Positions 12,999 to 62,859 of a stretch of 64,000 nt of DNA are shown in pieces; within the stretch, counting starts at the first letter, position 1, and every line of letters begins with the position of its first letter. The stretch covers positions 445,993-509,992 of the forward strand of contig CAVVJD010000014.1 in the NCBI GenBank assembly GCA_963748455.1, given 5' to 3'. This DNA comes from an uncultured Alphaproteobacteria bacterium. Lineage in GTDB: Bacteria > Pseudomonadota > Alphaproteobacteria > CACIAM-22H2. The notes beneath the pieces were generated by a model. It made no database searches and was not told the DNA's origin. It worked only from the letters and a program-made list of their open reading frames with translations. The position numbers and the translations under genes are program-made.

Positions 12999-14214
12999 TT
13001 CAGCGCGTCGCATTCTTGACAAGAGGGCACTTGCTCTCGGACAGCGGCCATACGGTTTCCTCGGGCGCGATCTTGCGCACGATCTCGAAGTAGTCCCACG
13101 GATACTTGGACTCCGCCGGTTTCTTCACCCGCGCGAGATACATCGTGCGCGTGACACGGCCGTCCTCGCGGATGCGCGCGTTCTCCGAAAAGATGTCATC
13201 GATCGGATCGCGCGCATCGCGGCCGCAACCTTGTCGGCATCGTCGGTGCCGGCCTTGGCGATCGCCTTGAGATAGTGGCGCACCGCGCCATAGACGCCCG
13301 CGTGCAGCATCGAGGGCATGATGCCGGTCTTGGCCATGAACTGCTTCGACCAGGCGCGTGTCGCGTCATTCGTGTCCCAATAGGACGCGGTGGTGAGATA
13401 CGTGCCCTGCGCGGCGCTAAGCCCGAGCGCGTGCACGTCCTGGAGGAAAAAGATCAGCGCCGCGAGGCTTTGTCCGCCTTGCACGAGGCCGAACTCGGCC
13501 GCCTGCTTCATCGCGGTGATGGTGTCGTTGCCCGCATTGGCGATGCCGATCACCTTGGCGCCGGACGATTGCGCCCGGAGCAGGAACGAGGAGAAATCCG
13601 CGGTGTTGAGCGGGTGGCGCGCGGCGCCCAGCACCTGGCCCCCCGCTGCGGTGATGACTTTGGTCGCATCGCTTCTGGAGCTGATGCCCGAACGCATAGT
13701 CCGAGGCGAGGATGAACCACGACGTTCCGCCCGCCTTCACCACTGCCGAGGCCGTCCCGTGCGACACCGCATAGGTGTCGTATGTCCAATGGAAGCCGTA
13801 GGGCGAGCACTGCTCGTTCGTAAGCGCGGTCGTGCCCGCGCCGGAATAGAGCACGATCCGCTTCTGCTCGCGCGCAAGATTCTGGATCGCGAGCGCCACG
13901 CCCGAATTCGGCACGTCGACAATCGCATCGACGCCTTCGACATCGAGCCAGCGCCGCGCGATCGAGAGGCCGACATCGGCCTTGTGCAGATGATCCGCCG
14001 AGATCACCTGCACCGGCTTGCCGAGCACCATGCCGCCGACTTCCTGGATCGCCATCTCGGCCGCGACGACCGATCCCTTGCCGGTGATGTCGGCGGTCAC
14101 GCCCGCAAGGTCGGTCAGGACGCCGATCTTGACGACATCGCCGCTGATCTGGGCCTGTGCCGCGATGGGAAGCATTGCGGCGAACAGGGCCGCGCCGAAC
14201 ATGTTCAGCCTCAT
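12999..14214 (-). pseudogene. Branched-chain amino acid ABC transporter substrate-binding protein (LivK-like), two frameshifts (near 13210 and 13700).
   Basis: Three consecutive minus-strand frames encode the N-terminal (signal + VKIGVLTDLAGV...), middle (IGIANAGNDTITAMKQAAEFGL...) and C-terminal (RIREDGRVTRTMYLARVKKPAESKYPWDYFEIV) parts of one LIV-binding protein. A single missing G in gcgcgcgatcc restores the last junction. Confidence 0.7.
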
Positions 14215-20968: not shown

Positions 20969-21884
20969 TCAGGAATTGGAGGAAGCGGGCGTCGGTGCTT
21001 TGGGGATGCGCTCCGGCAGGAGACCTTGCGGGCGCAGATGCAGCACCAGGATGAGCGCCAGGCCGATCAGGATCTCGCGCAAGGCGGCGAGTTGCACGGG
21101 CTGGAGGCCGGGCAGCCACTCCGTAGCGAAACGCGTTGCCTCGAGGAAGATCACGACGATGTAAGCCCCGAACACGGCGCCGCTCGGGCGCCCGACGCCG
21201 CCGGCGGTGACCGCGAGGAAGATATAGATCGTGATCAGCGGCTGGAAATGATCGGGTGAGACATAGGACTGGAAATGCGCGTAGAGCGCGCCGGCCAGCG
21301 CCGCAATCGCCGCCGACAGCGCGAAAGCCTGCCATTTGAAGCGCAGCACCGGCTTGCCGGCGAAGGCGGCGAGCTGCTGATCCTCGCGGATCGCCTTCAT
21401 CGCGCGGCCATAGGGGGATCGGTCGAGCCGGCGCAGCAGCAGCCAGACCAGCACGACGATCGCCGTCACCAGAGCGAGATAGAACAGATTGAAGCCCTGC
21501 AGGCCGATCTGCGGCCTTGAAGGGCGCCTTGATGCCGGAGATGCCGTCCGAGCCCTTGGTCAGCCAGCGCTCGTTGAGCGCGATCAGGCGGATCACCTCG
21601 GCAAAGCCGAGGGTCACGATGGCCAGATAATCGTCGCGCAGGCGCAGCGTCGCGAAGGTGACGCAGAGCCCGACGACGGCGCCGACGACGAGGGCCGCGC
21701 CCCAGCCGAGCAGAACCGGCGCGCCCGCACCAGTCGCGATCGCGGAGGCATAGGCGCCGACGGCGAAGAAGCCAGCGAGGCCAAGATTGACCAAGCCCAC
21801 ACCACCCCAAATCAAATTGAGGCTGAGCGCCAGCAGCGCGTAGATGCCGCAGATCGTCAGGGTGAAAATCGCGTAGGACAGCAT
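20969..21884 (-). pseudogene. livM: Branched-chain amino acid ABC permease LivM-like, frameshift near 21500.
   Basis: N-terminal part (MLSYAIFTLTICGIYALLALSLNLIWGGVG...) and C-terminal part (TAIVVLVWLLLRRL...LHLRPQGLLPERIP) are in different frames. The junction reads IKAPFKA|PQIGLQGFNLFYLA after a 1-nt correction. Confidence 0.7.
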
Positions 21885-22747
21885 CAGGCCGCCCGCTCGC
21901 CGAGGATGCCGCGCGGGCGGAAGGTCAGCATGATCAGGATAGCGACGAAGCCGACCGCGGTTCGATAGGTGGCGGGCACGGCGATCAGCGCCAGCTCTTC
22001 CGCCACGCCCAGCGCGAGTGCCCCGACCACAGCGCCGGGGATCGAGCCTAGGCCGCCGAGCACGGCCGCCGCGAAGACCGACAGCAGCACGCGATAGCCG
22101 GTCAGCGGATCGATCGAGGTGTCGAGGCCGATCAGCACGCCGCCGATGCCGGCGAGGCCGGCGCCGAGAAAGACGGTGACGATGGCGATGCGGGCCGGAT
22201 CGATGCCCTTCAGCCGCGCCAAATCGGGATTGTCGGCGACGGCGCGCATCGCCTTGCCGAAGCGGGTGTAGAACAGGAAACGCGAACATCGCGGCCATGA
22301 TCGCGACCGCGAGGCCGAGACTCTGCAATTGCTGCGGCCCGATGCGCAGCTCGCCGAAGCGCAGATCGCGCAGCAGCGGCAAATCGTAACCCTTCATGTC
22401 GTTGCCGAAGACAAAGCGCACGATGTTCTCCAGCACGAGGTTGAGCGCGATCGAGGCGATGGCGACGATCAAGGCCCCGCTCCCGCGCAGCCGGCGCAAC
22501 GCCGTCTCCTCCGCGCCCACGCCGACGAACCCGGCGATTGCAAACGCGACCAGCAAGGCCGGAACGACGGCCAGGCCCAGGCTCGTATTGGCCCACCAGG
22601 CGGCGAAGGCGCCGATGGTGGCGTAGGACGCGATGGCGAAGTTGGGATAGCGCAGCACCGCGAAAATCGCGGTGAAGCCGATGGCCGGGACAGCGATCAG
22701 CGTCCCGGCCATCACGCCGTTGATCAGCGCCTGCAGCAGCAAAGTCA
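21884..22747 (-). pseudogene. livH: Branched-chain amino acid ABC permease LivH-like, frameshift near 22265.
   Basis: N-terminal part (VTLLLQALINGVMAGTLIAVPAIGFTAIFAVL...) and C-terminal part (FGKAMRAVADNPDLARLKGIDP...TFRPRGILGERAA) are in different frames. Stop overlaps the livM ATG. Confidence 0.7.
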
Positions 22748-22767
22748 CGTGCGAGCGATCCCCTTGC

Positions 22768-23980
22768 TCAGGCGATCTTGACGAACGCGATCTTGCCCCC
22801 TTGCACCTGCTCGTAGCGGAACTTGCAATCGCTGATGTCGCCGATGTCGGTGAAATCGCAGGGGCCGCTGGCGCCGTCGTAATCGACCGCCTGCTTGGCG
22901 GCGATCGCCTTGAGCCCGTCGACGGCATTGTCGATCTTGGCGCCGCCCGGCGCCTGGCTCACCTTACGGATATTGTCCTTGATGGCGCTGCCCGAGGCAT
23001 CCCCGGCCACGGCGATCGCCATCAGCACGAGATTGATGTGGTCGTAGATCTGCGTGGTGTAGGGATCGGGCGAGGCCACGCCGATCATCTTGACCAGCCG
23101 GTCATAGGCCTTCGAGCCTTCCGCCGGCGAGGGCGAGATCGTGAAGGTCTTGTCGACGACCTCGGCCGGCACGCTTTCGACCAGCTTCTGGTTGACGGAA
23201 TAGCCGAAGGCGATCTTCGTGCCCGGCGAAGCCGGCGCGGAACAGGTCTTTCAGCATCACGGCCGTGTCCGTGGTGTAGCCGCCGAGCACGACCGTATCG
23301 GGCTTGAAGCGCAGCAGCTCGTCGATCTCGGTGCGGTAGGCCGGCTTCTTGTCGTCGTAGATCAACGACGCGGTCTCGCCGCCGCCCTTCTTCATCGCCT
23401 CGGTGATGTTGTCGAACTGGCTCTTGGCGAACGGTGTTTGCGGCGAGAGGAAGAAGACGCGCTTGGCGCCCTGGGCCAGCGCGAACTCGCCGAATTTGCG
23501 GCCCTGCAGCGTGGTGTTGGGCTGCGTGCGGACGAGATAGCCCTGATGCGGCAGCAAGGTGATCGAATCAGCGCCCGAGACGGTGCAGAGGAAGGTCTTC
23601 GATTCCCAGCACAGCGGTGCGACCGCTGTCGTCACCGACGAGGCCCAGGTGCCGAGAATGGCCGAGACCTTGTCGACGTCGATGAGCTTGCGCGCGGCGC
23701 GCACGCCCGCTTCCGGATTGGTCTGGTCATCCTCGGAGATCAGCTCGACCTTGCGGCCGAGCACGCCGCCGGCCGCGTTGACCTCGTCCACCACGGCCTT
23801 GACCGCCTTCACCATGACCGGGCCATAGGGGCCACCCGAGCCGGTAAGCGGCGTCAGCGTGCCGATTTTGATCGGAGCACCTTGCGCGAGACCGCGCATC
23901 GGCATTGTGGAAACTCCGGCAAGGGCCGCGGCCCCGCCCAGCAGGAGGCGGCGATTGAGTGTCAGGTCGGTCATGGTCAT
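22768..23980 (-). pseudogene. LIV-type ABC transporter substrate-binding protein, frameshift near 23215.
   Basis: Signal peptide plus GAPIKIGTLTPLTGSGGPYG... in one frame; ...KIAFGYSVNQKLVESVPAEVVDKTFTISPSP...FRYEQVQGGKIAFVKIA in another. Removing one G from gccgggcacgaag restores AGTKIAFGY. Confidence 0.7.
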
Positions 23981-39564: not shown

Positions 39565-40923
39565 TTACGCCGGCAAGCCGGTCTCGAAGCAGTAATACAG
39601 CGTGCGGAAGCCTGAGCGCAGCGCCAGCGCGTCCTTCTTCACGCTCTCCGGGCTTTCGCGGCGCACGATGACGCGGGCGATGAGGTCGGCGATTTGCTCC
39701 ATCTCGCGTTCTTTCATGCCGTAGCGCGTCATCTCGATCGTGCCCATGCGCAGGCCGCCCGGATAGTCCCAATCCTTGGGCGCGTCGGTCGGGATCAGGT
39801 TCTTGTTGACGATGATGTTGGCGCGCTCGAGTGTCTGCGCGCATTCGAGGCCGCGGCCGAATTTGCGCGCATCGGCGATCGCCTGGTGCGTGGTGGTGAA
39901 GCCCTTGTGGCGACCGAGCATCGGCAGGCCGCGCTCGTCAAGCGCCTTGGCCAGCGCCTGGGCGTTCTTGACGATCTGCGCCATGAATTTTTCGCCAAAG
40001 GCGATCGCCTCGGCGGTGGCCAACGCCAACGCGGCGACACGATTGACCTGATGGGTGGCGGCCCAGATCGGGAACACGGCCGTCGTCACCTTCTCCGTGA
40101 TCGTCGGGTCGTCCCAGACGATGATGCCCGATTGCGGGCCCGCGAAGGTCTTGCCGGCGGAACCGGTCATGATATCGGCCCCCTCCTTCAACGGATCCTG
40201 GAACTGCTTGCCGCCGATCAGGCCGAGCTGATGGGCGGCATCAAAGAACAAGCGCCCACCCCACTCGCCGATCGCCGCTTTCATTTCGGCGACCGGCTGC
40301 GGGAACAGGGTCATCGACAGGCCGAGCGCCACCAGCGGCGGACGCACCGCCGGCGCGACCTTGCGAAACGCGTCGATATCGACGACGAGTTCATGCGGGT
40401 CCATCGGGATGTCGACGATCTTGCGGCCCATGGCGCCGGCCGGCCCATCGATGCGGTTGGAGGAATGGCCGCCGACCGGCTGCGCCGCGCTCATGATCAC
40501 GTCGCCCGGCGCCGACAGCGCCGTATAGACCACGGCATTGCCGACCATGCTCGCGCACATGCGGTGGTCGGCGTAGTTGCAGCGGAAGTAGCGCTTCATC
40601 AGCTCGACGCACAGCGCTTCGACTTCATCGATGTGCCGCGTGCCGGCGAACCAGCGATTGACCTTGCCGATATGACCCTCGGCGGCGCGCGTGCCGATTT
40701 CGGCGCCGAGCAGCGCACGCACGCCCGGGCTGGTCGGCGCTTCGGGCGCGAGCAGGTTGATGCAGTCCTGGCCGCGCCATTGCGCGTTGCGCGCGACCGC
40801 GGCCTTGACCGCCTCGCCCATGTCGCGCACCTCGGCACAGGCATCGAGAATGGCGCTGGCCGCGGCCAGCGCGTCGCGGTCGTGAATTTCGATCCGGTTG
40901 TGGGATACGGCCATGGCGGTCAT
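39565..40923 (-). CDS. Serine hydroxymethyltransferase-family PLP enzyme (divergent GlyA-like aldolase).
   Basis: SHMT-fold hallmarks (…NAVVYTALSAPGDVIMSAAQPVGGHSSN…, PLP-lysine region GSAGKTFAGPQSG) on a divergent sequence about 450 aa long. Confidence 0.65.
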   Translation of the reverse strand: MTAMAVSHNRIEIHDRDALAAASAILDACAEVRDMGEAVKAAVARNAQWRGQDCINLLAPEAPTSPGVRALLGAEIGTRAAEGHIGKVNRWFAGTRHIDEVEALCVELMKRYFRCNYADHRMCASMVGNAVVYTALSAPGDVIMSAAQPVGGHSSNRIDGPAGAMGRKIVDIPMDPHELVVDIDAFRKVAPAVRPPLVALGLSMTLFPQPVAEMKAAIGEWGGRLFFDAAHQLGLIGGKQFQDPLKEGADIMTGSAGKTFAGPQSGIIVWDDPTITEKVTTAVFPIWAATHQVNRVAALALATAEAIAFGEKFMAQIVKNAQALAKALDERGLPMLGRHKGFTTTHQAIADARKFGRGLECAQTLERANIIVNKNLIPTDAPKDWDYPGGLRMGTIEMTRYGMKEREMEQIADLIARVIVRRESPESVKKDALALRSGFRTLYYCFETGLPA

Positions 40924-41040
40924 GGAGAGGCTCCTTCTGGCGAATTCCCGCAGAATCTGCCACGTAATCTATGGCAATAGATTTCGTTCTGGCATTCCGT
41001 TATTTTCATACTGGAATGGGCCAGAGAGGAGTTCTTGAAA

Positions 41041-41567
41041 TGAATGAAAAGAACAGGGCGAAGTCGGGCCCACCCGAAGAGGCGGCGCCGGTGGCTCTCG
41101 ACCCAATCGACCGCAAAATTCTCGACATCCTGCAGGAGAACAACCAGGTCACGAACCTGGAGCTCGCCGAGCGGATCGGTCTTTCGCCCCCACCCTGCCT
41201 GCGCCGCGTGCGCCAGTTGCACGAGCGCGGCGTCATTGCCAAAGATGTGGCCATCGTCGATCCGGCCAAGGTCGGCCGCACCATCACCGCATTTGTCGGC
41301 GTCGAGTTGGACCGCCAACGCGAGGACGTGCTGGCGAGCTTCGAGCGCAAGATCCGTGCCGAACCTGAAGTGCAGCAATGCTATTTCGTCTCGGGCGATA
41401 TCGACTACCTGCTGGTTGTCACGTGCGTCGACATGCCGAGCTACAACGCTTTCGCACGGCGCGTGCTGGCCAACGAGCATAACATCAAGCGCTTCCGCAC
41501 CAGCTTCAACCTGTCGCGGATCAAATACGAAACCAAGGTGCCGCTGGGGGCGGCGGCTTCGGACTGA
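41041..41567 (+). CDS. Lrp/AsnC-family transcriptional regulator.
   Basis: LDPIDRKILDILQENNQVTNLELAERIGLSPPPCLRRVRQLHERGVI (HTH_AsnC) plus a RAM domain. Divergent from the SHMT-like gene. Confidence 0.85.
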
Positions 41568-41676
41568 TCGCAAGCAGCGCATTTTTTGCAGGGACGAACT
41601 CTCAAGCCACGCCTAGAATGCGATCTTGGTGAGTCCTCCGAGTGCGCCGAGCCCGGCCGGGATGGGACCTCAACCA

Positions 41677-44600
41677 TGCGCTGCGCCGCCTGTGATGCAG
41701 ACAACCCTGCCGCTGCCAAGTTCTGCGCGGCCTGCGGCGCGAGTTTGGGCGTGCCGTGTCCCCGCTGCGGTCATGGCAACCGCCCGAGCAGCCGCTTCTG
41801 TGTCGAGTGCGGCGGACAATTGACCGGGCCGACGCCGGCTGCCGGATCGTGACATGACGTCGCGCCCGCTCGCGCCGTCGTCCTACACGCCCCCGCATTT
41901 GGCCGAAAAGATCCTCGCGTCTCGCGACGCCGGTCGAGGGCGAGCGAAAGCAGGTCACGGTGCTCTTCGCCGATATCAAGGGCTCGACCGAGCTTATTCA
42001 AGCCTTGGACACCGAGGAGGCCCAACAAGCTTCTCGACGGCGCGGTCAAAGTGATGATGGACGCCGTGCATCGCTACGAAGGGACGGTGAGCCATGCGCT
42101 GGGCGACGGGATCATGGCGCTGTTCGGGGCGCCGATCGCCCACGAAGACCACGCCGTTCGCGCCTGCTATGCCGCGCTGGCGCTCCAGGACGGGATGCGC
42201 CGCTACGCCGAACAGGCGCGGCGGACCCACGGGGCGTTGGTCCAGGCGCGGGTCGGGCTGAACAGCGGCGAGGTGGTCGTGCGGTTGATCAGCGATGATC
42301 TGCACATGGACTACACGGCCATGGGCCCGACCGTCCATCTCGCGTCGCGCGTGGAGCAGCTGGCGCGCGAAGGCACCTGCCTGCTCACCGCCGAAACGCT
42401 CAGATTGGTGGAAGGCTATGTGCAGGTTCGCACGATCGGCGCGGTCGCGATCAAGGGGCTGGATCGCACCGGCCGAGCTGTTCGAGCTGCTGGGCGCCGG
42501 TGCGGCGCGGACGCGCCTGCAAGCTATGGCGGTGCGCGGCCTGACCCGGTTTGTCGGACGTCAGGCCGAGCTGGTCGCCGATCCACCGCGCCCTCGAACG
42601 TGCCCAGCCCGGCCACGGCCAATTGGTGGCCTTGGTGGGGGAGCCGGGCGTCGGCAAGTCGCGCCTGGTCTGGGAGGTCACCCACTCTCACCGCACGCAG
42701 GGCTGGCTGGTGCTGGAGAGCGGCTCCGTCTCCTACGGGAAGGCGACATCCTGGCTGCCGGTGATCGACCTGCTCAAGGCCTATTGCGGGATCGGGCCCC
42801 GCGATGACGCACGCTCCATCCGCGAGAAGCTCACCGGCAAATTGCTCACGCTGGACCGCAAATTGGAGCCGAGACCTGCCGGCCTTTCTGTCTCTGCTCG
42901 ACGTGCCGATCGACGAGGAATCCTGGCAGGCTCTCGATCCGCCTAAGCGCCGGCGGCAGACGCTCGATGCCCTCAAGCGCCTGCTGCTGCGCGAGAGTCG
43001 CGAACAACCGCTCCTGCTGATCTTCGAGGACGTGCACTGGATCGACTCGGAGACGCAGGCCCTGCTCGACGGCCTTGTCGAGGGTCTCCCCACGGCCCGC
43101 ATCCTCCTGCTCGTCAACTATCGGCCGGAATACACGCATGCCTGGGGGAGCAAGACCTACTACACGCAGATCCGGATCGACCCTCTTGGAGAGGACAGCG
43201 CCGAGGCGCTGCTCGATGCGCTGTTGGGGACGGCCCGCCCGGTCGACGATGATGGCAGGGCCGAGGACGCGCAAGAAAGCCCACCGCTGCACGACCTGAA
43301 ACGGCTCCTGATCGAGCGGACCGAGGGCAATCCGTTCTTCCTGGAGGAAAGCGTCCGCACGCTGGTCGAAACCGGCGCACTCGTCGGCGAACGAGGGGCC
43401 TACCGGCTGGCCGCGGAGGTTGCGGGCATTCGTGTGCCGGCGACGGTCCAGGCGGTCTTGGCAGCCCGCATCGACCGGCTCCCCGCAGAGGAGAAGCGGC
43501 TGCTGCAGACAGCGGCGGTGATCGGCAAGGATGTGCCATTTGCCCTGTTGCGGGCGATCACCGTCGAGGCCGCGGACGCAGCGCACGCGCGATCTGTTCA
43601 CGGAGGAAGACCTGAGGGCCGGCCTGGCGCATCTTCAAGCGGCGGAATTCCTCTACGAGGCGAGCCTGTTTCCCGTAGCTGGAATACACATTCAAGCACG
43701 CCCTGACGCATGAGGTGGCCTATGGCAGCCTTCTGCAAGAACGCCGCAAGGCGCTGCACGCGCGCATCGCTCGCCGCGATCGAGACGCTGTATTCCGACC
43801 GCCTGGCCGAGCATGTCGAGCGGCTGGCCCACCACGCCCAGCGTGGCGAGTGCTGGGAGAAGGCGCTGAGCTACTCCCGTCAGGCAGGACTCAAGGCCGT
43901 GGCCCGCTCGGCCAATCGCGAGGCCGTCGTCTTTTTCGAACAGGCCCTCGCCGCCCTTGGGCACCTTCCGGAGACCCGCGACACGCTGGAGCAAACCGTC
44001 GATCTGCGGCTTAACCTTCGACAGGCGCTTCTCCCGCTCGGGGAATTTGAACAGATCCTGGACCACATCCGTAAAGCCGAGACCATTGCCGAGACCCTGA
44101 ACGATCAGCGCCGGCTGGCCCGTACCCTCTGCCTGGATGGCGTATTCATACTGCTTCACGCTCGGCGACAATGAGCGAGCCATAGCGACCGGGCAGCGCG
44201 CCCTCGCAATCGGTCGCGCGCTCGATGACCTCCCGCTCCAAGTCCTCGCGACGTTCTATCTGGCCTATGCGCACTGGCAGCGGGGTGACTATCGCCAAGC
44301 GATCGACGGTCTCAGATGGATCGTGGTCAATCTCCAAGGCGAGTTGATCCGCGAGCGCTTTGGCATGGCCGGCTATCCGTCGGTGCTCGCGCGCGGCTTG
44401 TTGGCTTGGTGCCTGGGCGACACTCGGCGAATTCGCCGAAGGGAGGGCCTATGCGCAGGAGGCGATCAGTCTGGCGGACGCGCTTGACCAACCCTTCAGC
44501 CAGAGCGTCTTGAGAACGTGGCTGGGCCATTTCTATGTCGCTCAGGGTGATCTGCGCACCGCGATCTCTCTGCTCGAGCAATGCTGTGCGCTCGTCGAGC

Positions 44601-45178
44601 GCTGGGACATCCCGCGCCTTGGCGCCATCGCCGCCTCGCTGCTCGGCGTCGCACATGCCCTGAATGGGCTGCCCCACACGAAGGCGTGCCGTTCCTGGAG
44701 ACAGCAGCAGTCCAGCTTAAATCCGAGAAAGGAAGCTCCGAGACCCGCCTGATCATTCCCATATGCGAGGGATATTTGCTGGCCGGCCGGATTGAGGACG
44801 CGATCCGGCTCGCCGACCGCGCCCTCCACGGCTCCCGGACGCGCAAGGAACGCGGATACGAGGCGCAGGCATCTGCGCCTCCTCGGCGACATCGCCGCGC
44901 GCCGCGATCCACCGGACGGCGACGAAGTCCGAATCCCGCTACCGCCAAGCGCAGAAACTGGCCGAGGACTCTTGGCGATGCGGCCGCTCCAGGCCCATTG
45001 CCATCTCGGCCTTGGCAAGCTCTACCGGCGCATGGAAAGAGCGCACGAGGCGCATTTTGAACTTTCCACGGCCGTCGACATGTTGCGGACAATGGAGATG
45101 ACGTTCTGGCTGCCAGAGGCAGAGGCCGAACTGGCGGAGGCGATAGCATCGCCATCGGCGAAGCGAGTCGGATTATAG
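41677..45178 (+). pseudogene. Heavily decayed class III adenylate/guanylate cyclase - AAA ATPase - TPR regulatory protein, about 10 frameshifts.
   Basis: N-terminal zinc-ribbon (CAACDADNPAAAKFCAACGASLGVPCPRCGHGNRPSSRFC), cyclase core (VTVLFADIKGSTEL...GDGIMALFGAP), P-loop (LVGEPGVGKSRL), DUF/AAA_16 region and C-terminal TPR helices. These are spread over at least 10 different overlapping ORFs in three frames. Confidence 0.8.
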
Positions 45179-45227
45179 CCCCCTCCTTCACCGCCGACCT
45201 TCCTACAACGACCACGCCGATACCCGC

Positions 45228-45325
45228 CAACGAGCAAAACATCAAGCGCTTCCGCACCAGCTTCAACTTGGCACGGGTCAAATACGAGACCAAGGTGCCA
45301 CTGGAGGAGAACGCCACGGCCTGAC
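45228..45325 (+). pseudogene. Remnant: diverged 3' end (last about 31 codons) of an Lrp/AsnC-family gene.
   Basis: Encodes ANEQNIKRFRTSFNLARVKYETKVPLEENATA*, versus ANEHNIKRFRTSFNLSRIKYETKVPLGAAASD* at the end of the intact lrp (41470..41567). About 85% nucleotide identity over about 95 bp. Confidence 0.75.
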
Positions 45326-45417: not shown

Positions 45418-45786
45418 ATGGCTGTGCGCGACGATCTTCTCAAGCTGGAAAGGCAATTCTGGACCGGCGACGCGGATTTCTATCGCGAGCATCTGGACGA
45501 CAAATGCCTCGTGGCCTTCACGGACATGGCGGGCGTCATGGGCAAGGAGGATATCGCCCAGATGGTGAAGAAGGACCCGCCGCGGTGGAGCGACCTAAAA
45601 TTCGAGGACAAGGGCATGGTCACGCCCGCCGACGGAATCGCTATTCTGAGCTATCAGGCCAGCGGCAAGCGCGGTACCGGCGCGGCGTACAAGGCGGTCG
45701 TCAGCAGCGGCTATGTGAAACGCGATGGCGCGTGGAAGATGGCCTTTCATCAGCAGACGCCGCTTGGAACCGACGCCGGAAAATAG
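45418..45786 (+). CDS. SnoaL-like / NTF2-like (DUF4440-type) small protein.
   Basis: 122 aa. LERQFWTGDADFYREHLDDKCLVAF...DGAWKMAFHQQTP pattern of the NTF2-like superfamily. AGGAGA RBS. Confidence 0.6.
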   Translation: MAVRDDLLKLERQFWTGDADFYREHLDDKCLVAFTDMAGVMGKEDIAQMVKKDPPRWSDLKFEDKGMVTPADGIAILSYQASGKRGTGAAYKAVVSSGYVKRDGAWKMAFHQQTPLGTDAGK

Positions 45787-45962: not shown

Positions 45963-48455
45963 ATGCGCAAGACTTTCTTCTATGCCGGCGTGTTCCTCAC
46001 ATGCCTGGCGACATTGATGCTGCAGATCATCGAGACGCGCCTGCTCTCGGTGACCGCGCATTATCATCTCGCCTTCTTCTCGATCAGCATGGCAATGTTC
46101 GGCATGACGGCCGGTGCCGTCTGGGTTTACTACAACAGTGCGCGCATCACCGCTGAAACTCTAGCGTCCACCCTGACCAAATTCGGGTCCGCTTTTGCCC
46201 TTGGCACCGTCGCCTCGGTCCTGCTGCAAGTCACGCACGCCCCGGTCCTGGTTCTGTCCGCCACCACGATCCTGACCTGGGCCGAACTCGCCATCGTCAT
46301 GGCGACGCCGTTTTTCTTCTCGGGCGTGGTTGTCAGCATCGCCCTGACGCGCAGTCCCTTCCCCGTAAATCAGATCTACGCCGTCGACCTGATCGGTGCC
46401 TCGCTCGGATGTCTGGGCGTGCTCGCTCTCCTGGATGTCCTCGATGCCGTTTCCAGCATTTTCGCGGTTGCGGCCGTCGGCGCCGCGGCGGCGGGCTGCT
46501 TTGCCGCGTCCGCGGCCCGGCCTGCACGACGCAATTCCCGGCTTCTGGATCGCGTCCTGTTCCGCCCGTGGACGATCTGCGCGGTGCTGATCGCAATGGC
46601 CGTGGCGAATGGCGCCACGATCCGGGGTATCCAGCCGATCGTCGTCAAGAACACGGTCGACCGCCGCGAGAACCTGTCGTTCGAGCAATGGAACTCCTAT
46701 TCCAGAATCATCTCGCGAAAGCCGTATGTCGACGAGCCGCTGCTGTGGGGCCCCTCACCGACAATGCCGGCGGATTTGAAGGTCGAGCAACGCCGCCTCA
46801 ACATCGATGGCGACGCCGCGACGAGCATGTTCCGGTTCAATGGCGATGTCGCCAGCGCCCGGTTCCTGGCCCATGACGTGACAAACCTCGCCTACGCCAT
46901 CCGCAATTCGGGACGCGCCGCGATCATCGGCGTCGGCGGCGGCCGCGACATGTTGTCGGCCTGGATGTTCGGCTTTCGCGACATCACGGGCGTCGAGCTC
47001 AATCCCATATTCATCGATCTCCTTACGACTCATCCGAATTTTCGGAACTTCGCCGGCCTCGCGTCGCTGCCGGGTTTGCGTTTCATCGTTGACGAGGCTC
47101 GCAGCTGGTTCGCGCGATCGACCGACAGTTTCGATCTCATCCAGATGAGCATGATCGATACGTTCGCGGCGACCGGTGCCGGCGCGTTCTCGCTCTCCGA
47201 GAACGGGCTTTATACGATCGAAGGATGGCAGCATTTCCTGAACCGTCTTGCGCCGAACGGCGTGTTCACGGTCAGCCGATGGTATTCCGCAGGTGAGGTC
47301 AATGAGACCGGCCGGATGATCAGCCTCGCGGTCCGCACGCTGTTGGACAACGGCGTGCACGACCCGTCACGCCACATCTTTCTCGGCGCGACCGGAAATC
47401 TTGCGACGCTGGTGCTGTCACGCACCCCACTCACCGCTGCCGAGATTGCAGCATTGCACAAGACTTCGAGCGATCGGGAGTTTCAGATCCTGCTCAGTCC
47501 CGGACGTCCGGCAGCGTCGCCGCTTCTGGCGTCCATCACCGCCGCGAAGAGTCCTGCGGAACTCGCGCGCGCGACGTCGGGGTATCTCCTCGATCTCAGT
47601 CCACCCACCGACGACCGCCCGTTCTTTTTCAATCAACTGCCGCTGACACGGGCCCACATGGCTCTCAACGTGCAGAGTTTCGAGAAGCCCGGCGTTCTGA
47701 GCGGCAACATCATCGCGTCGGCGACGCTGCTGCTGATCGTCGTCCTGGCGTCGATCCTGGTGCTGGCGACGATCGTGATCCCGATGCGGCCGGCGATCCG
47801 GCAATCCGATGCGCGCCTGATCGCCGCCGGCACGGTTTATTTCGTCCTGATCGGCCTCGGCTTCATGTTTGTCGAGATCGGGTTGTTGCAGCGGCTCTCG
47901 GTCTTTCTCGGCCACCCGATCTATTCGCTCAGCATCGTGCTGTTCAGCATCATTCTCTTTACCGGCCTCGGCAGCTTCGCCTCCGCGCGCCTTGCCCTTG
48001 ACCAGTCCGGCCGGTTTGCGGCCTGGGCGATCGGGCTCGCGGCCTATGTCTTTGTCCTGCCGATCATGCTGCCGGCGTTCATCGAGTCCTTCGCGGGGGC
48101 CGACACATTTCAGCGCGCGATCGTCGCTATCGGCCTGATCGCGCCCGGTGCCATCCTGATGGGGTTCGGCTTTCCCGCGGGCATGCGTCTGGTCATGCAG
48201 ATCGATGCCCGCCCCGCGCCATGGTTCTGGGGCATGAACGGGGCCGCGGGCGTGCTGGGCTCGGCCATCGCGGTCGCCATCAGCATCTCATTCGGAATCG
48301 ATACGACGCTTCGCCTGGGTGCGTTGTGCTACCTGGGGCTGCATCCCCGCCGCCTATCTGCTCGTCGGCGAGCGCCGGGCACAGATCGAAGCCGCCATCC
48401 TGCCGCCATCGGTGACGGCTACCGATTGACCACCATGCGATTGTCCGAGGCGTAG
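45963..48455 (+). CDS. Membrane-embedded spermidine/spermine-synthase-like fusion protein (N-terminal multi-TM, central aminopropyltransferase-like SAM fold, C-terminal multi-TM). Possible frameshift in the last about 35 codons.
   Basis: About 7 N-terminal TM helices. SAM-fold motifs AIIGVGGGRDM and DLIQMSMIDTFAATGAG. About 7 C-terminal TM helices. An alternative frame near 48345 gives a hydrophobic tail ...GLIPAAYLLVGERRAQIEAAILPPSVTATD*. Confidence 0.7.
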   Translation: MRKTFFYAGVFLTCLATLMLQIIETRLLSVTAHYHLAFFSISMAMFGMTAGAVWVYYNSARITAETLASTLTKFGSAFALGTVASVLLQVTHAPVLVLSATTILTWAELAIVMATPFFFSGVVVSIALTRSPFPVNQIYAVDLIGASLGCLGVLALLDVLDAVSSIFAVAAVGAAAAGCFAASAARPARRNSRLLDRVLFRPWTICAVLIAMAVANGATIRGIQPIVVKNTVDRRENLSFEQWNSYSRIISRKPYVDEPLLWGPSPTMPADLKVEQRRLNIDGDAATSMFRFNGDVASARFLAHDVTNLAYAIRNSGRAAIIGVGGGRDMLSAWMFGFRDITGVELNPIFIDLLTTHPNFRNFAGLASLPGLRFIVDEARSWFARSTDSFDLIQMSMIDTFAATGAGAFSLSENGLYTIEGWQHFLNRLAPNGVFTVSRWYSAGEVNETGRMISLAVRTLLDNGVHDPSRHIFLGATGNLATLVLSRTPLTAAEIAALHKTSSDREFQILLSPGRPAASPLLASITAAKSPAELARATSGYLLDLSPPTDDRPFFFNQLPLTRAHMALNVQSFEKPGVLSGNIIASATLLLIVVLASILVLATIVIPMRPAIRQSDARLIAAGTVYFVLIGLGFMFVEIGLLQRLSVFLGHPIYSLSIVLFSIILFTGLGSFASARLALDQSGRFAAWAIGLAAYVFVLPIMLPAFIESFAGADTFQRAIVAIGLIAPGAILMGFGFPAGMRLVMQIDARPAPWFWGMNGAAGVLGSAIAVAISISFGIDTTLRLGALCYLGLHPRRLSARRRAPGTDRSRHPAAIGDGYRLTTMRLSEA

Positions 48456-48545
48456 CGATTCAGGCCGCGATCGAAGACGAAAATCGCCAGCGCGCCATAG
48501 ACCAGCGCCGCGGCCATCACGGCCATCGCCTTGAATACGACCCAA
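48419..48545 (-). pseudogene. Remnant: diverged 3' end (last about 35-40 codons) of an ABC-2 permease gene, paralogous to the 3' end of 50509..52092.
   Basis: Encodes ...AMAVMAAALVYGALAIFVFDRGLNRYASDNRMVVNR*, versus ...FAAVIAAACIYGALAVFIFERGLRHYASGNRMVVNR*. About 78% nucleotide identity over about 125 bp, none beyond. Confidence 0.75.
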
Positions 48546-48618
48546 GGTGCCGCTGGCGGCGAGTGCCGCGGGCTGACAGGCCAAAGATCGTAAAGGGAGT
48601 CACACCGAGTCTTCGCCA

Positions 48619-49262
48619 TCAATAGGCAAGGCGACCATAGAGCTCCTCGAACGGAACCATCACGTGCTGTTGATAGGCGCGACGATCCTGGAGGCGCTGA
48701 TACCAGGCCTTCACGTTGGGAACCGACGGGCGCTCAATCTCAAGATTGAAATAGCGATAGAGACAGGTTCCGGCCGGAATGTCGGCCAGCGTCAGGGCGT
48801 TGCCGAGGAGGAAATCGCGCCCCGCGAGCTGACGATCGAGCAATGTGAAATGCCGCGCGCAGAGATCGATCTTCTTGCGCACTGCCGCCGTGTCGCGCTG
48901 CCGCGCCGGGGTGCAATAGAAGCCCCAGAAAACGCCCATCAGGAAATCGGGCTGCAGCGTGGTGTGCGCCCAATCCATCCAGCGATCCGATTGCGAGCGT
49001 TCGGCCGGCGCATCCTGCCAAAATGCGCCCCGCCTATAGTGAGCCGCCAGATATCGCAAGATTGCGTGCGATTCCCAGACGACCGTGCCGTGATCGTCGA
49101 TCACCGGCACCTTGCCGTGCGGGTTCATGGCGCGAAATTCGGCGCGTCCAGGCCACCGAAGGAACCGCCGGCCTCGATATGCCGGTGCTCGAGCCCAAGC
49201 TCGTCGACCATCCACATGACCTTCTGCACATTGAATGAGCTGCGCCGCCCCCAGATCGTCAG
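48619..49262 (-). pseudogene. Glutathione S-transferase, frameshift near 49140.
   Basis: N-terminus MLTIWGRRSSFNVQKVMWMVDELGLEHRHIEAGGSFGGLDAPNF is in one frame. The continuation MNPHGKVPVIDDHGTVVWESHAILRYLA... (ORF 48619..49353) is in another. Confidence 0.7.
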
Positions 49263-49294
49263 CATTCAATACCCCTCTCGCATGCACGCGTCGG

Positions 49295-49891
49295 TCAGCA
49301 GGTCGGAAAACCGAGATGCGCGCGGAGCCGGTTCTTGACATGCACCGCATCACGCGGCGGCAACGAGCGCGGCGGATTCTCCGCCTTTATCTTCAGGACA
49401 AAGAGTCGCGGACCCACGGCGGGCTGGCGCAGAACATCGCAAAGCGCGTCGACCTCCGCGAGGGTGCGGACAATGCCGGCCTCGGCGAAACCGCAAGACG
49501 CGGCGACAGCGGCGAAATCGAGGCCCTTCGCCGTGTGGCTTGCCTGCATTCCGGTTTCACCGAAATGCTCGTTGTCGAGGATGATCAGAGCAAGGTTCTT
49601 TGGCTTTGCAGCCGAAATCGTGGCCAGGCTGCCGAAGGCCATGAGCTGCTCCCCGTCGCCGGTGATGACCATGACGCGGCGCTTGGGCTGAGCCTGCGCA
49701 AGGCCAAGCCCGACGAGTGCGGCCGCGCCCATGGCACCCCATAGGTAGTAATTGTCGTCACGATCACCGGCGGCATGGACATCGTAGCTTGGCGATCCAA
49801 GACCGGTGACAACCAGAGCCTGATCGCGGCCGGCCAAGAGCGTGCGGACAGCATCGCGACGATCCATCGTAATCGGGGCTTGAACGTTCAT
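49295..49891 (-). CDS. comE: Sulfopyruvate/phosphonopyruvate decarboxylase-like TPP enzyme, beta subunit (ComE-like).
   Basis: TPP-binding motif GDGEQLMAFGSLATI...ILDNEHFGETG (GDG-X24-NN-like). Confidence 0.7.
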   Translation of the reverse strand: MNVQAPITMDRRDAVRTLLAGRDQALVVTGLGSPSYDVHAAGDRDDNYYLWGAMGAAALVGLGLAQAQPKRRVMVITGDGEQLMAFGSLATISAAKPKNLALIILDNEHFGETGMQASHTAKGLDFAAVAASCGFAEAGIVRTLAEVDALCDVLRQPAVGPRLFVLKIKAENPPRSLPPRDAVHVKNRLRAHLGFPTC

Positions 49892-49895
49892 GATG

Positions 49896-50477
49896 TCACC
49901 ACTTCTTCTCGCCAAGCAGGCGCTGGCCGATCAGCACCGCGATCTGCTGCTCCGCCTCGTAAGCCTGCGTTGCCGCCGACGCGACGGTTGCGATCAAATC
50001 CTCTGCCGTCTCGGCACGCATCACCCGCAGGCCGATCGCTTCGAGCGACGGCTGTGTCGCCCGGCTCATCGGCATCTGCCAGGGATTGAACTCCGCCCAC
50101 TCCCCGCGCATCGTGACCAGGATCAGCAAGGGGAACCGCGCCAGCACCGGCAGCGATAGCATATTGATGCAGTTGCCCACACCGCTCGACTGCATGAGCA
50201 GCACGCTGCGCTGCCCGCCGAGCCAGGCGCCCGCCGCAATCGCCACGCCCTCCTCCTCCGTCGTCAGCACGTTCGAAACGACGTCGAGATCCGCCAGGAA
50301 CAGATTGATCAGGGCCGAATGGCCTGCGTCCGGGACATAGGCCATGTGCTGAACGCGCGCGGCCTTCAGCAGCCTATAAAGCTCGGTCGGCCATTCACTC
50401 GTGGTTTCGGCTCCGGCATGAGCCACGGGATGCTGGTCGGCACCGGCCACGGTCACCCTCCTCTGGGTCGATTGCAC
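49896..50477 (-). CDS. comD: Sulfopyruvate/phosphonopyruvate decarboxylase-like TPP enzyme, alpha subunit (ComD-like).
   Basis: TPP pyrimidine-binding domain (YVPDAGHSALINLF...TTEEEGVAIAAGAWLGGQRSVLLMQSSGVGN). Sits 4 nt upstream of the beta subunit. Confidence 0.7.
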   Translation of the reverse strand: MQSTQRRVTVAGADQHPVAHAGAETTSEWPTELYRLLKAARVQHMAYVPDAGHSALINLFLADLDVVSNVLTTEEEGVAIAAGAWLGGQRSVLLMQSSGVGNCINMLSLPVLARFPLLILVTMRGEWAEFNPWQMPMSRATQPSLEAIGLRVMRAETAEDLIATVASAATQAYEAEQQIAVLIGQRLLGEKKW

Positions 50478-50508: not shown

Positions 50509-52092
50509 CTATCGATTGACGACCATCCGGTTGCCTGATGCGTAGTGGCGCAGTCCACGCTCGAAGATGAAGACCGCAAGCGCGCCATAGATGCAAGCTG
50601 CCGCAATCACAGCAGCGAACTTGCCAGGATCAGACTCGCGTATGGCCTCAACGGGCACCTGTGAGATGAACGCGACCGGCAACAGCGTGAACAGCAGGAT
50701 GCGCATGCCGGCCCCGAAGACGTGCTGGGGATAGACCGAGATCATCAGCACGACATTGACCAGCTCCTCGCCCAGGCGCACGGCGCGCGGCCACCAGAAG
50801 ACCAGGCACTGGCCCATCACGAAGGTGGCCAGCATCACGATGCCGCCAGCGGTGGCGAGCGCGATCAGCAGCGGCAGATCGGCAACGCTGCGCCCGCCCA
50901 GCACCAGCCACATCACGGGCGCACTGGCGAGATCGCCGAAGCCCGATGGGATCGAGCGCGACAGCAGCAGGCTGGGCAGCGGATGACGTGGCCGGCCGAG
51001 ATGGACATCGAGCCCGCCATCGGCGATGGCGCGGCCCATGTCGCGGAAGCCGCCGGCCATCGTCACGCTCAGGCCGAACGCCCAGGCCGCCATGCCGTAG
51101 AGCAGCGCGACATCCTGCTGCTGCCAGCCGGCCAACTCGCGAAAGCGCGCGAAATAGATCATCCAGATGATGAAGAAGACGAGGTTGTTGGCGAACATCA
51201 GGACGACGGAAACCAGCGCCTCGCCGCGCCGCGCGAAACCGGCCTTGATGTTGGTTGCCAACAGGGCGCCGAGATAGGTCAGCATGGCTGAGACTTCGTC
51301 GCGCACGAAACGGCGTGTCGCCGCGGCCGCAAGCAACGCCACGGCGATACCGACGATCGCCAGCCAGAAGACCTGCCAGGCGAAGACGCGCGCAATCGCG
51401 TGCGCGCTTGAGTCAAAGACCAGGCTCGCCGGGTGGAACATGATGGCGGCGAATGGCGACACCTCGCCGATGGCGCGGATGGCCGGCGGATAGAGGGTGA
51501 GCGGGATCAGCAGCCCGCCGAAGATGAACGCCAGCTTCTGCCAGACCCAGAAGAACGGTGCGGGCGTGCTGAGCCAGGCGGTCAGCAAGCCGGTGCCGAG
51601 CTGGAGCAGCAGCATGAGCACGGCGCCGACCGCCACGGTCAGCACCAGGACCGGCACCGTCACGAGGGCAAACGGCACCGTTCCCGTCGCCAGCGCGGTG
51701 ACGAGCGCGCCGATGGCACCCAGGGTCAGCAGGCGATAGGCGCCGCCGCCCAGCCACTCGGCGAAGACCGCCAGCGCATAGGGCAGCGGGCGCGTGAGGG
51801 AAGCTTCGACGGCGCCGGAGCGGATCTCGTCTTCCACTTCGCGGAAGGCGTGGCCGCCGATGAACACCACCCATTCCGTCACCATCACGTACCAGGCGAT
51901 GCTGGCTGCGTCGTAACCGGGCAGATCGACCAGACCCAGCGGTGTTGCCGCCCAGACCGCGACGAAGACGAGGACGGGCACAACGAACAGCAAAGCCCGC
52001 GCCGCCATGCCGACGCGATCGGCAGCGGCCTCGCGCCAGCCCAAGCGCGCGAAGGCGCCGAGAGCGGCGACGATGCGCGCGACTTCGCTCAT
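50509..52092 (-). CDS. ABC-2-type exporter permease (two fused ABC-2 membrane domains).
   Basis: 527 aa, about 12 TM helices, with duplicated ABC-2 family architecture. Translationally coupled (overlap) with the upstream ATPase. Confidence 0.75.
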   Translation of the reverse strand: MSEVARIVAALGAFARLGWREAAADRVGMAARALLFVVPVLVFVAVWAATPLGLVDLPGYDAASIAWYVMVTEWVVFIGGHAFREVEDEIRSGAVEASLTRPLPYALAVFAEWLGGGAYRLLTLGAIGALVTALATGTVPFALVTVPVLVLTVAVGAVLMLLLQLGTGLLTAWLSTPAPFFWVWQKLAFIFGGLLIPLTLYPPAIRAIGEVSPFAAIMFHPASLVFDSSAHAIARVFAWQVFWLAIVGIAVALLAAAATRRFVRDEVSAMLTYLGALLATNIKAGFARRGEALVSVVLMFANNLVFFIIWMIYFARFRELAGWQQQDVALLYGMAAWAFGLSVTMAGGFRDMGRAIADGGLDVHLGRPRHPLPSLLLSRSIPSGFGDLASAPVMWLVLGGRSVADLPLLIALATAGGIVMLATFVMGQCLVFWWPRAVRLGEELVNVVLMISVYPQHVFGAGMRILLFTLLPVAFISQVPVEAIRESDPGKFAAVIAAACIYGALAVFIFERGLRHYASGNRMVVNR

Positions 52093-61912: not shown

Positions 61913-62859
61913 TCAATCGTTGTGGTGACTCAGTCTCAGACGGATGTCGGGATCATTCACGTTGGCGGCGCTCACGACCAGGAAGTCGACCATGATCTGC
62001 GCGGGAATTTGCCGGCCGGACTGGGCCTGAACGGCCCGCTGGACCGCTTGATAGCCCATCTGGTAGGCGTCCTGCACGACCATCAGGTAGAGATCTCCGC
62101 GGCGCAGATCGTCCTCGAAACTGGGCCGGTAGTCGAAGCTCAGCAGGAGCGGCCGCTTCGCCGGCGCCCAGTCCTGCAAAACTCGCATCGCGCTGATGCC
62201 GATCTTGCCTGTCGGCGTGAAGACGGCGTCCAGGGCGCCTTGATGCGGCGCCAGGATGACGGCGGCAATCGCCTGCGCCTCGCGCAAATCGTGACCGACA
62301 TAGCTATCGACAACGACGTTGAGGCCCAACTCCTTGGCCGTGTCGATGAACCCCGCCTCGCGCGCCGAGGTCGAGACGACATACGGCGCCAGGCGCAGTA
62401 CGCCGACCTTCGCGCCCTTCGGCAAGCGCCCTTGCAAGGACAGGGCGGCCGCACGTCCGCCGCCGTAATTGTCGGTCGCAATCGTCGAGAGGGATTTGAA
62501 AGCGTCGCTTGAGCCGATCGACGAAGATCACCGGCACCGGAAATTCGATCGGCGTCGGGACACCGACAACCGGCATCGGCGCCAGGATCAGCGCCTTCGC
62601 CCCGGCCGACAACATGATACTGGACCATCTTGAGCTGCAGATTCTGCTCGACGCTGGTCGGATTGTCGTCGACGGGGCTGCGGATCAGGACATGGACGCC
62701 GAGATCATTGGCGGCCTGGACAATGCCCTTCTCCATCACATTCCAGAAGGGCCCGCGCGTTCCCGCCAGGACGGCACCGATATCCTGGGCGTGGGCGACG
62801 TGCGGCGATAGAGAAACTATTGTCAGAAACAGCGACAGCAGAATGAGCCTTGCGCGCAT
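61913..62859 (-). pseudogene. Periplasmic binding protein (sugar-binding/LuxP-like PBP domain), two frameshifts.
   Basis: Signal peptide plus N-domain in 62140..62859. Middle segment is in 62304..62615 and C-terminal domain in 61913..62437, so shifts lie within 62437-62615 and 62304-62437. Adjacent to the hybrid kinase. Confidence 0.65.

Follow-up and report, generated by a model that had tools for sequence, protein, structure and literature searches.

The stretch of DNA analysed here, referred to as the window, comprises 64,000 nucleotides of contig CAVVJD010000014.1 (positions 445,993 to 509,992; GenBank assembly GCA_963748455.1) from an uncultured Alphaproteobacteria bacterium. It contains an intact gene for a regulator of the Lrp/AsnC family (lrp; 41040..41567, forward strand; 175 aa; Pfam HTH_24, HTH_AsnC-type and AsnC_trans_reg), the 3' end of which occurs a second time beyond a gene for a class III adenylate/guanylate cyclase. 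In a repeat search the two copies form a single direct repeat of 99 nt, in register, with 84 of the 99 positions identical (85%) and a distance of 3757 nt from start to start. Copy A (41469..41567, forward) is the functional final 33 codons of lrp, copy B (45226..45324, forward) is a displaced lrp 3' end (ANEQNIKRFRTSFNLARVKYETKVPLEENATA followed by the stop codon), and both finish on TGA. An earlier note on this DNA had reported that the last ~95 bp of lrp recur at ~85% identity, which is confirmed apart from its coordinates for the second copy (45228-45325), these being off by 1-2 nt. A 19-nt core pattern of the repeat matches twice in the window, versus 0.02 matches expected from shuffles; this expectation, together with that for a 15-mer described further below, rules out chance similarity as the source of the lrp-tail repeats.

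Copy B is a 5'-truncated remnant and not a second gene. Since the stop codon of the cyclase gene lies at 45176-45178 and the lrp-like similarity 5' of 45226 is weak, gapped and no longer than ~40 nt (shuffle p about 0.03), no second complete lrp is present, as the earlier note had likewise held. This weak similarity lies in the spacer between the cyclase stop and copy B (45179..45225, forward), which may represent a degraded extension of the remnant (CTACAACG and GTCGAC motifs; weak). Copy B carries Q where 24 of 25 orthologues have H. Copies A and B, copy A and the relative L002, and copy B and L002 all agree at 71 of 78 positions. Because the DNA of the lrp tail is this conserved, the 85% identity between A and B says little about the age of the duplication, and neither tail can be called ancestral; the possibility raised earlier, that a relative would reveal the remnant-type 3' end as the ancestral state, thus finds no answer in these comparisons.

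The DNA between the copies (41568-45225; 3658 nt) contains the cyclase gene (41676..45178, forward) as its sole gene, with ~100 nt ahead of it and 47 nt behind it. The encoded protein combines a double zinc ribbon, a class III adenylate/guanylate cyclase domain, an AAA_16 ATPase and TPR repeats (Pfam DZR, Guanylate_cyc, AAA_16 and TPR). The earlier description of this gene as the only cargo between the copies therefore stands, but the gene does not start at the lrp stop as had been thought, its coding sequence beginning 108 nt past it. A conserved upstream region travels with the cyclase gene (41583..41675, forward) and starts 15 nt after the lrp stop, where homology to a cyclase locus in another sequence (L055, described below) begins. 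No recombinase, transposase or integrase gene was found in 41568-45225 (by the list of open reading frames (ORFs) and Pfam), a repeat search detected no inverted repeats at the ends of the insert, the insert contains no attC-like site, and no Rfam family matched between 40 and 50 kb of the window. A transposon, an insertion sequence and an integron cassette were all rejected as explanations, given the lack of terminal inverted repeats and of a transposase or integrase, and a duplication of 99 nt.

Occurrence of the cyclase gene in related sequences

Scans based on Lrp retrieved lrp orthologues at 25 loci in genomes and 14 in metagenomes (68-82% identity, none closer than 82%). A gene of the SHMT family stands beside lrp wherever the contig is long enough (25 genome loci and 11 of the 14 metagenome loci). 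Neither the cyclase nor a second lrp tail was found within 10 kb of lrp in any of these 39 loci, and the genes downstream in the window are likewise absent. The gene content 3' of lrp varies among clades and is common only within sub-clades, with none of it common to the window, which places lrp at the edge of a conserved block.

Intact homologues of the cyclase were retrieved with a stitched query of 1162 aa, an earlier protein search having returned only fragments of at most 387 aa. In L055, the cyclase gene (84% nucleotide identity over 41583-45142) lies among unrelated genes and without lrp, showing that the gene and its ~90-nt upstream region occur in different contexts. No flanking repeat was found around the L055 copy, and a gene-specific mobile mechanism for the cyclase was ruled out on this ground. 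The absence of the cyclase from the 39 lrp loci, together with its presence in an unrelated context in L055, supports an insertion in the window.

The same arrangement is found in a contig of 3764 nt from an independent run (L054; SRR29271445), which is 90% identical to 41476-45255 and consists of 92 nt from the end of lrp, stop codon included, a 109-nt spacer, the intact cyclase gene (an ORF of 1161 aa, P0121), a 42-nt spacer and 30 nt from the start of the remnant. That the arrangement is shared at 90% identity indicates that it predates the split of the two lineages. The view of the earlier note, that an old insertion behind lrp left a displaced 3' end, is therefore supported, the event being common to the window and L054. 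The spacer ahead of the cyclase (41568-41675) is 93.6% identical to that of L054, and the spacer behind it (45179..45225) just 71%. In its functional lrp tail, L054 has five states in common with copy B against copy A of the window.

Interruptions in the cyclase reading frame

The reading frame of the cyclase gene is broken in the window into about 16 frame segments. Compared with L054 and L055, the window sequence has 17 private single-base insertions (41844, 41930, 42029, 42465, 42581, 42869, 43586, 43680, 43771, 44131, 44423, 44670, 44678, 44871, 44925, 44969 and 44970), no private deletions and no stop codons. The inserted bases comprise all four nucleotides and lie mostly outside homopolymers. 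According to the earlier note, the inserted cargo has since decayed into a pseudogene. The 17 frame breaks do stand in the deposited sequence, an ORF of 300 aa from one cyclase fragment is present as such in public protein collections (P0001), and the gene is sometimes inactivated in relatives (e.g., by a stop at codon 965 in L055, 10001-13489). True decay is nevertheless unlikely, since it is contradicted both by the insertion-only nature of the 17 events and by the substitutions that the gene has accumulated.

When private substitutions are polarised with L055 as the outgroup, the 98 that belong to the window are distributed 25/11/62 over codon positions 1/2/3 (63% at third positions), create no nonsense codon, and divide into 63 synonymous and 35 non-synonymous changes (ratio 1.8). 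The branch leading to the intact gene of L054 gives a comparable picture (40/27/117 at positions 1/2/3; 115 synonymous and 69 non-synonymous changes; ratio 1.7). The substitutions in the window cyclase thus reflect purifying selection, with no relaxed period and no neutral component, which speaks against 17 real frameshifts having been carried for any length of time.

Frameshifts are also present in other parts of the window, where candidates flagged by a hidden Markov model of the phase of third-position G+C content (GC3) were confirmed with Pfam. At least seven other genes are split, and by frame arithmetic the shifts appear to be mostly +1, a pattern that again runs counter to a decay confined to the cargo. 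The split genes include three genes of a liv-type ABC transporter operon (20969-23980, reverse strand; all +1), in which the binding protein matches Peripla_BP_6 at positions 1-216 only and both permeases match BPD_transp_2 over two ORFs. They also include a second binding protein gene (13131-14214, reverse; Peripla_BP_6 positions 2-174 and 148-321 in different frames) and a periplasmic binding protein gene (61916-62859, reverse; Peripla_BP_4 positions 117-257 only). Downstream of the cyclase, the tail of a membrane protein gene with no family match (45963..48429, forward; an ORF of 830 aa is listed to 48455, and the stop lies at 48427-48429 after frameshift correction) carries a +1 shift near 48335 relative to the locus L087. 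A GST gene (48619..49265, reverse; its Pfam GST_N match begins at profile position 35, residue 3) is split near 49140, the 44 N-terminal codons being out of frame with the rest; only this shift clearly runs the other way, and one in the binding protein gene at 13 kb possibly does as well.

These patterns suggest that the frameshifts are probably consensus errors of the deposited assembly and that the inserted cyclase gene is most likely functional. The decay proposed in the earlier note is not borne out, given the intact gene in L054, the exclusively inserted bases, the codon-position pattern without stops and the other split genes. Two observations weigh against the error reading. The density of frameshifts is very uneven (17 in the 3.5 kb of the cyclase versus about 9 in the other 60 kb), so that the error reading needs an extra assumption, possibly low or mixed coverage between the repeats. 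In addition, a fragment with 84% identity from a separate metagenome (L053, 1-1055) carries an in-frame TAG and a 2-nt insertion (a duplication of CT), indicating that genuine inactivation of the cyclase gene does occur in relatives. A frameshift near 43680 that seemed common to L053 and the window dissolved in a five-way alignment, the CT duplication of L053 lying 10 nt upstream instead. Alternatively, the frameshifts could be real and represent a burst of insertions only, outside homopolymers and concentrated ~30-fold in the captured segment of a gene under purifying selection until very recently, which is very unlikely. In that case an insertion-biased mutational or repair process would be implied (e.g., repeated breakage with error-prone end-filling), opposite to the usual deletional bias of bacterial pseudogenes. 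The cyclase also offers a caution for annotation, in that a call of pseudogene made from frameshifts alone is contradicted by the substitution pattern and probably reflects assembly quality.

Several minor observations concern the same gene. Interruptions are frequent among its close homologues, and the one in L052 (7000-10500) is split into three ORFs. Two of the inserted bases in the window, at 42465 (GGATGC to GGATCGC) and 42581 (GCCGTCC to GCCGATCC), create GATC, and a third adjoins one; as the genome is rich in CGATCG, this may be coincidental. The intact cyclase protein (P0121) scores 349 bits on NCBIfam TIGR03903 (TOMM system kinase/cyclase fusion), for which the cut-off is 706. A role in Pycsar or another cyclase-based defence system was considered and rejected, since the PADLOC match to PycC covers the generic cyclase domain only (E 2e-16 and weaker) and no effector gene is present; no partner genes of TOMM or PycC systems were found near the window cyclase.

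Further displaced gene ends downstream of the cyclase

Scars of the same type occur further downstream, and the A/B pair is one of three. The 15-mer CCAAGGTGCCRCTGG is found three times in the window, always on the forward strand, versus 0 occurrences expected by chance, and it is absent from 88 retrieved loci. Its third occurrence belongs to copy C (48534..48576, forward; TGA at 48574-48576; blastn to copy B, E 8e-5), a shorter lrp 3' end. Next to it lies the 3' end of an ABC-2 permease gene (remnant R; 48419..48501, reverse). R begins at a stop codon of its own and shares bases with the end of the membrane protein gene; over 83 nt it has 78% identity to 50509-50591 (E 1e-14), a stretch that likewise begins at its stop codon. 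The truncated 5' ends of R and C are joined head-to-head. The functional version of R lies at the 3' end of an intact ABC-2 permease gene of 527 aa (50509..52092, reverse; Pfam ABC2_membrane_6). The 19 differences between R and this resident end are distributed 4/3/12 by codon position and the amino-acid changes are conservative. This predominance of third-position and conservative changes indicates that R was once part of a functional, diverged allele, which fits a related donor.

The remaining genes of the interval are a DUF4440 gene (45418..45786, forward; 122 aa; assigned by Pfam), which adjoins GST on the reverse strand in relatives, and two genes for the C- and N-terminal parts of a thiamine pyrophosphate (TPP)-dependent enzyme (49295..50477, reverse; Pfam TPP_enzyme_C), which are the neighbours after GST in a relative as well. 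In the window, lrp with copy A is followed by cyclase, copy B, DUF4440, membrane protein, R (reverse) and C (forward), GST, TPP-C, TPP-N and permease, the last four on the reverse strand. In L087 (1-1059; SRR22386052) the order is membrane protein, DUF4440 and GST (reverse). Of the contigs of P0242 and P0244 in JGI 3300078620, one has ProCA, DUF4440, GST (reverse) and TPP (reverse), and the other has the order of the window. The interval from lrp to the permease gene is a mosaic variable region, probably made up of captured gene blocks.

Route of insertion and comparison with known systems

The best model for this region, and a reasonably probable one, is that recombination within the 3' ends of two conserved genes placed blocks of captured genes between them, without an integrase. 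Incoming DNA would have brought the cyclase gene with its upstream region of ~90 nt, as well as an lrp tail of ~100 nt of its own, and the crossover with the chromosome would have fallen within the 3' end of lrp. The likeliest route would be one crossover of the Campbell type between the chromosome and a fragment from a related genome that was circular or had circularised; another would be a one-ended homologous join combined with an illegitimate join. The product would be an intact lrp (copy A), followed by the cargo and by a 5'-truncated duplicate (copy B) on the far side. In such a process, lrp would have stayed intact because the shared segment extends through the stop codon, and only 3' ends would be found duplicated because only events that reach the stop codon spare the flanking gene. 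At least one more event of this kind in the interval would have left copy C and R joined at their cut ends, as the R/C joint is what would be expected of the closure joint of a circularised fragment after a single crossover. By analogy with the insertions of Amarir-Bouhram et al. (2011, PMC3240628), this head-to-head joint may reflect a circular intermediate, and the insertion presumably depended on RecA.

The locus shows several hallmarks of insertion-duplication: direct copies that include the stop codon, an intact upstream gene with a 5'-truncated downstream copy, an insert that is absent at this site in relatives and found elsewhere in another context, and displaced tips in series (C and R). 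In an E. coli system of one-ended selection, 56 of 60 recombinants were single crossovers with circular molecules that bore a short homology, the insertions being flanked by direct duplications (109-950 bp) of the homologous DNA (PMC3240628). The size range and geometry of those insertions, which were laboratory plasmid constructs in E. coli, match the present scar. Homology-facilitated illegitimate recombination in its classical form usually yields a deletion in the recipient and no duplication (PMC3240628), whereas the product here is a duplication and not a deletion. The illegitimate joint of such an event would be expected to carry a microhomology of 3-10 bp.

Some points count against this capture by 3'-end recombination. 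The identity between A and B is uneven along the repeat (41/42, then 30/36, then 13/21), with 7 differences in the first 78 nt, none of them at a second codon position within the first 26 codons, and 8 in the last 21 nt, an unconstrained tail; this pattern fits either gene conversion or divergence between two alleles that were both still functional, and does not decide between them. The contig of L054 ends within the repeat on both sides, so that both junctions are visible and their link to the flanks is not. Lastly, no circular intermediate, donor genome or relative with an empty site was found, and the route is thus read from the scar alone.

The direct repeats could in principle have arisen in place, by a tandem duplication from inside lrp through the cyclase with subsequent deletion of the second cyclase copy, or, as a variant, by a replication template switch. 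Such a rearrangement would account for direct repeats in register, and A and B were possibly near-identical when the event occurred. It is highly improbable, in that it requires two precise events, leaves unexplained both the distribution of the cyclase (absent from the 39 lrp loci and in an unrelated context in L055) and the presence of R, and sits poorly with the resemblance of the differences in R to those of a selected, diverged allele.

The closest parallel in architecture is the prophage e14 (and phage 21) at icd in E. coli K-12, where the icd and icdC copies (165 nt, 153/165 identical) both extend to the stop codon and have no upstream homology. There, as here (84/99), a gene carries the insert in its 3' end and is completed by the upstream copy, and a 5'-truncated remnant remains beyond the insert. 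An integrase-mediated element of this type, which supplied a substitute end for lrp and later lost everything but the cyclase, would explain the equivalent architecture and the repeated use of one site (copies A, B and C), which is typical of att sites. It is nonetheless decidedly unlikely as the source of the insert. Whereas e14 is a prophage of 15 kb that carries phage genes along with intE and xisE, the insert here consists of one cellular signalling gene, with no recombinase or other mobile-element gene in the 3658 nt between the copies. The upstream region of the cyclase begins 15 nt after the lrp stop. All other DNA of such an island would have to have been cleanly deleted, and an att site in lrp does not account for the fusion of R to copy C.

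Capture without an integrase has a further parallel in the C-terminal displacement arrays of rhs, contact-dependent inhibition (CDI) and type VI secretion system (T6SS) effector loci, in which repeated insertions behind a conserved gene body leave earlier 3' ends displaced downstream as orphan tips (Jackson et al. 2009, PMC2935791; Kirchberger et al. 2017, PMC5361080). These arrays have been proposed to arise by homologous recombination via circular intermediates or by homology-facilitated illegitimate recombination, with no integrase involved (PMC2935791, PMC5361080). The three lrp tails in series are similar to such arrays in arising, under the capture model, without an integrase. The tips of the rhs, CDI and T6SS loci, however, are different toxin domains with immunity genes, the diversity of which is selected, whereas the lrp tails differ little in the Lrp C-terminus that they encode and the cargo genes are unrelated; the lrp-tail duplication looks like a by-product. 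By these analogies, the scar belongs to a known kind that includes insertion-duplication scars, the 3' ends at prophage att sites and C-terminal displacement arrays, and the lrp-tail repeat is an ordinary recombination scar. If captured as proposed, the cyclase provides an integrase-free example of how a chromosome can acquire whole genes behind a conserved gene that is left unbroken, the incoming DNA supplying a spare copy of its tail. Older tails would accumulate as dated scars (here three from lrp and one from the permease gene, all within 7 kb), which could be used for ordering acquisitions in variable regions.

Two minor observations concern the conserved side of the insertion site. The lrp product scores 116 bits on NCBIfam Lrp, under the equivalog cut-off of 233. 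The SHMT-family gene that is the conserved partner of lrp (39565..40923, reverse; 452 aa; Pfam SHMT) is divergent from it, and this divergent pair of an SHMT-family and an Lrp/AsnC gene (39565-41567 in the window, and 36 related loci) is kept in Inquilinus, Stellaceae-like and other alphaproteobacterial genomes, which suggests that the regulator encoded by lrp may control the divergent SHMT-family gene.

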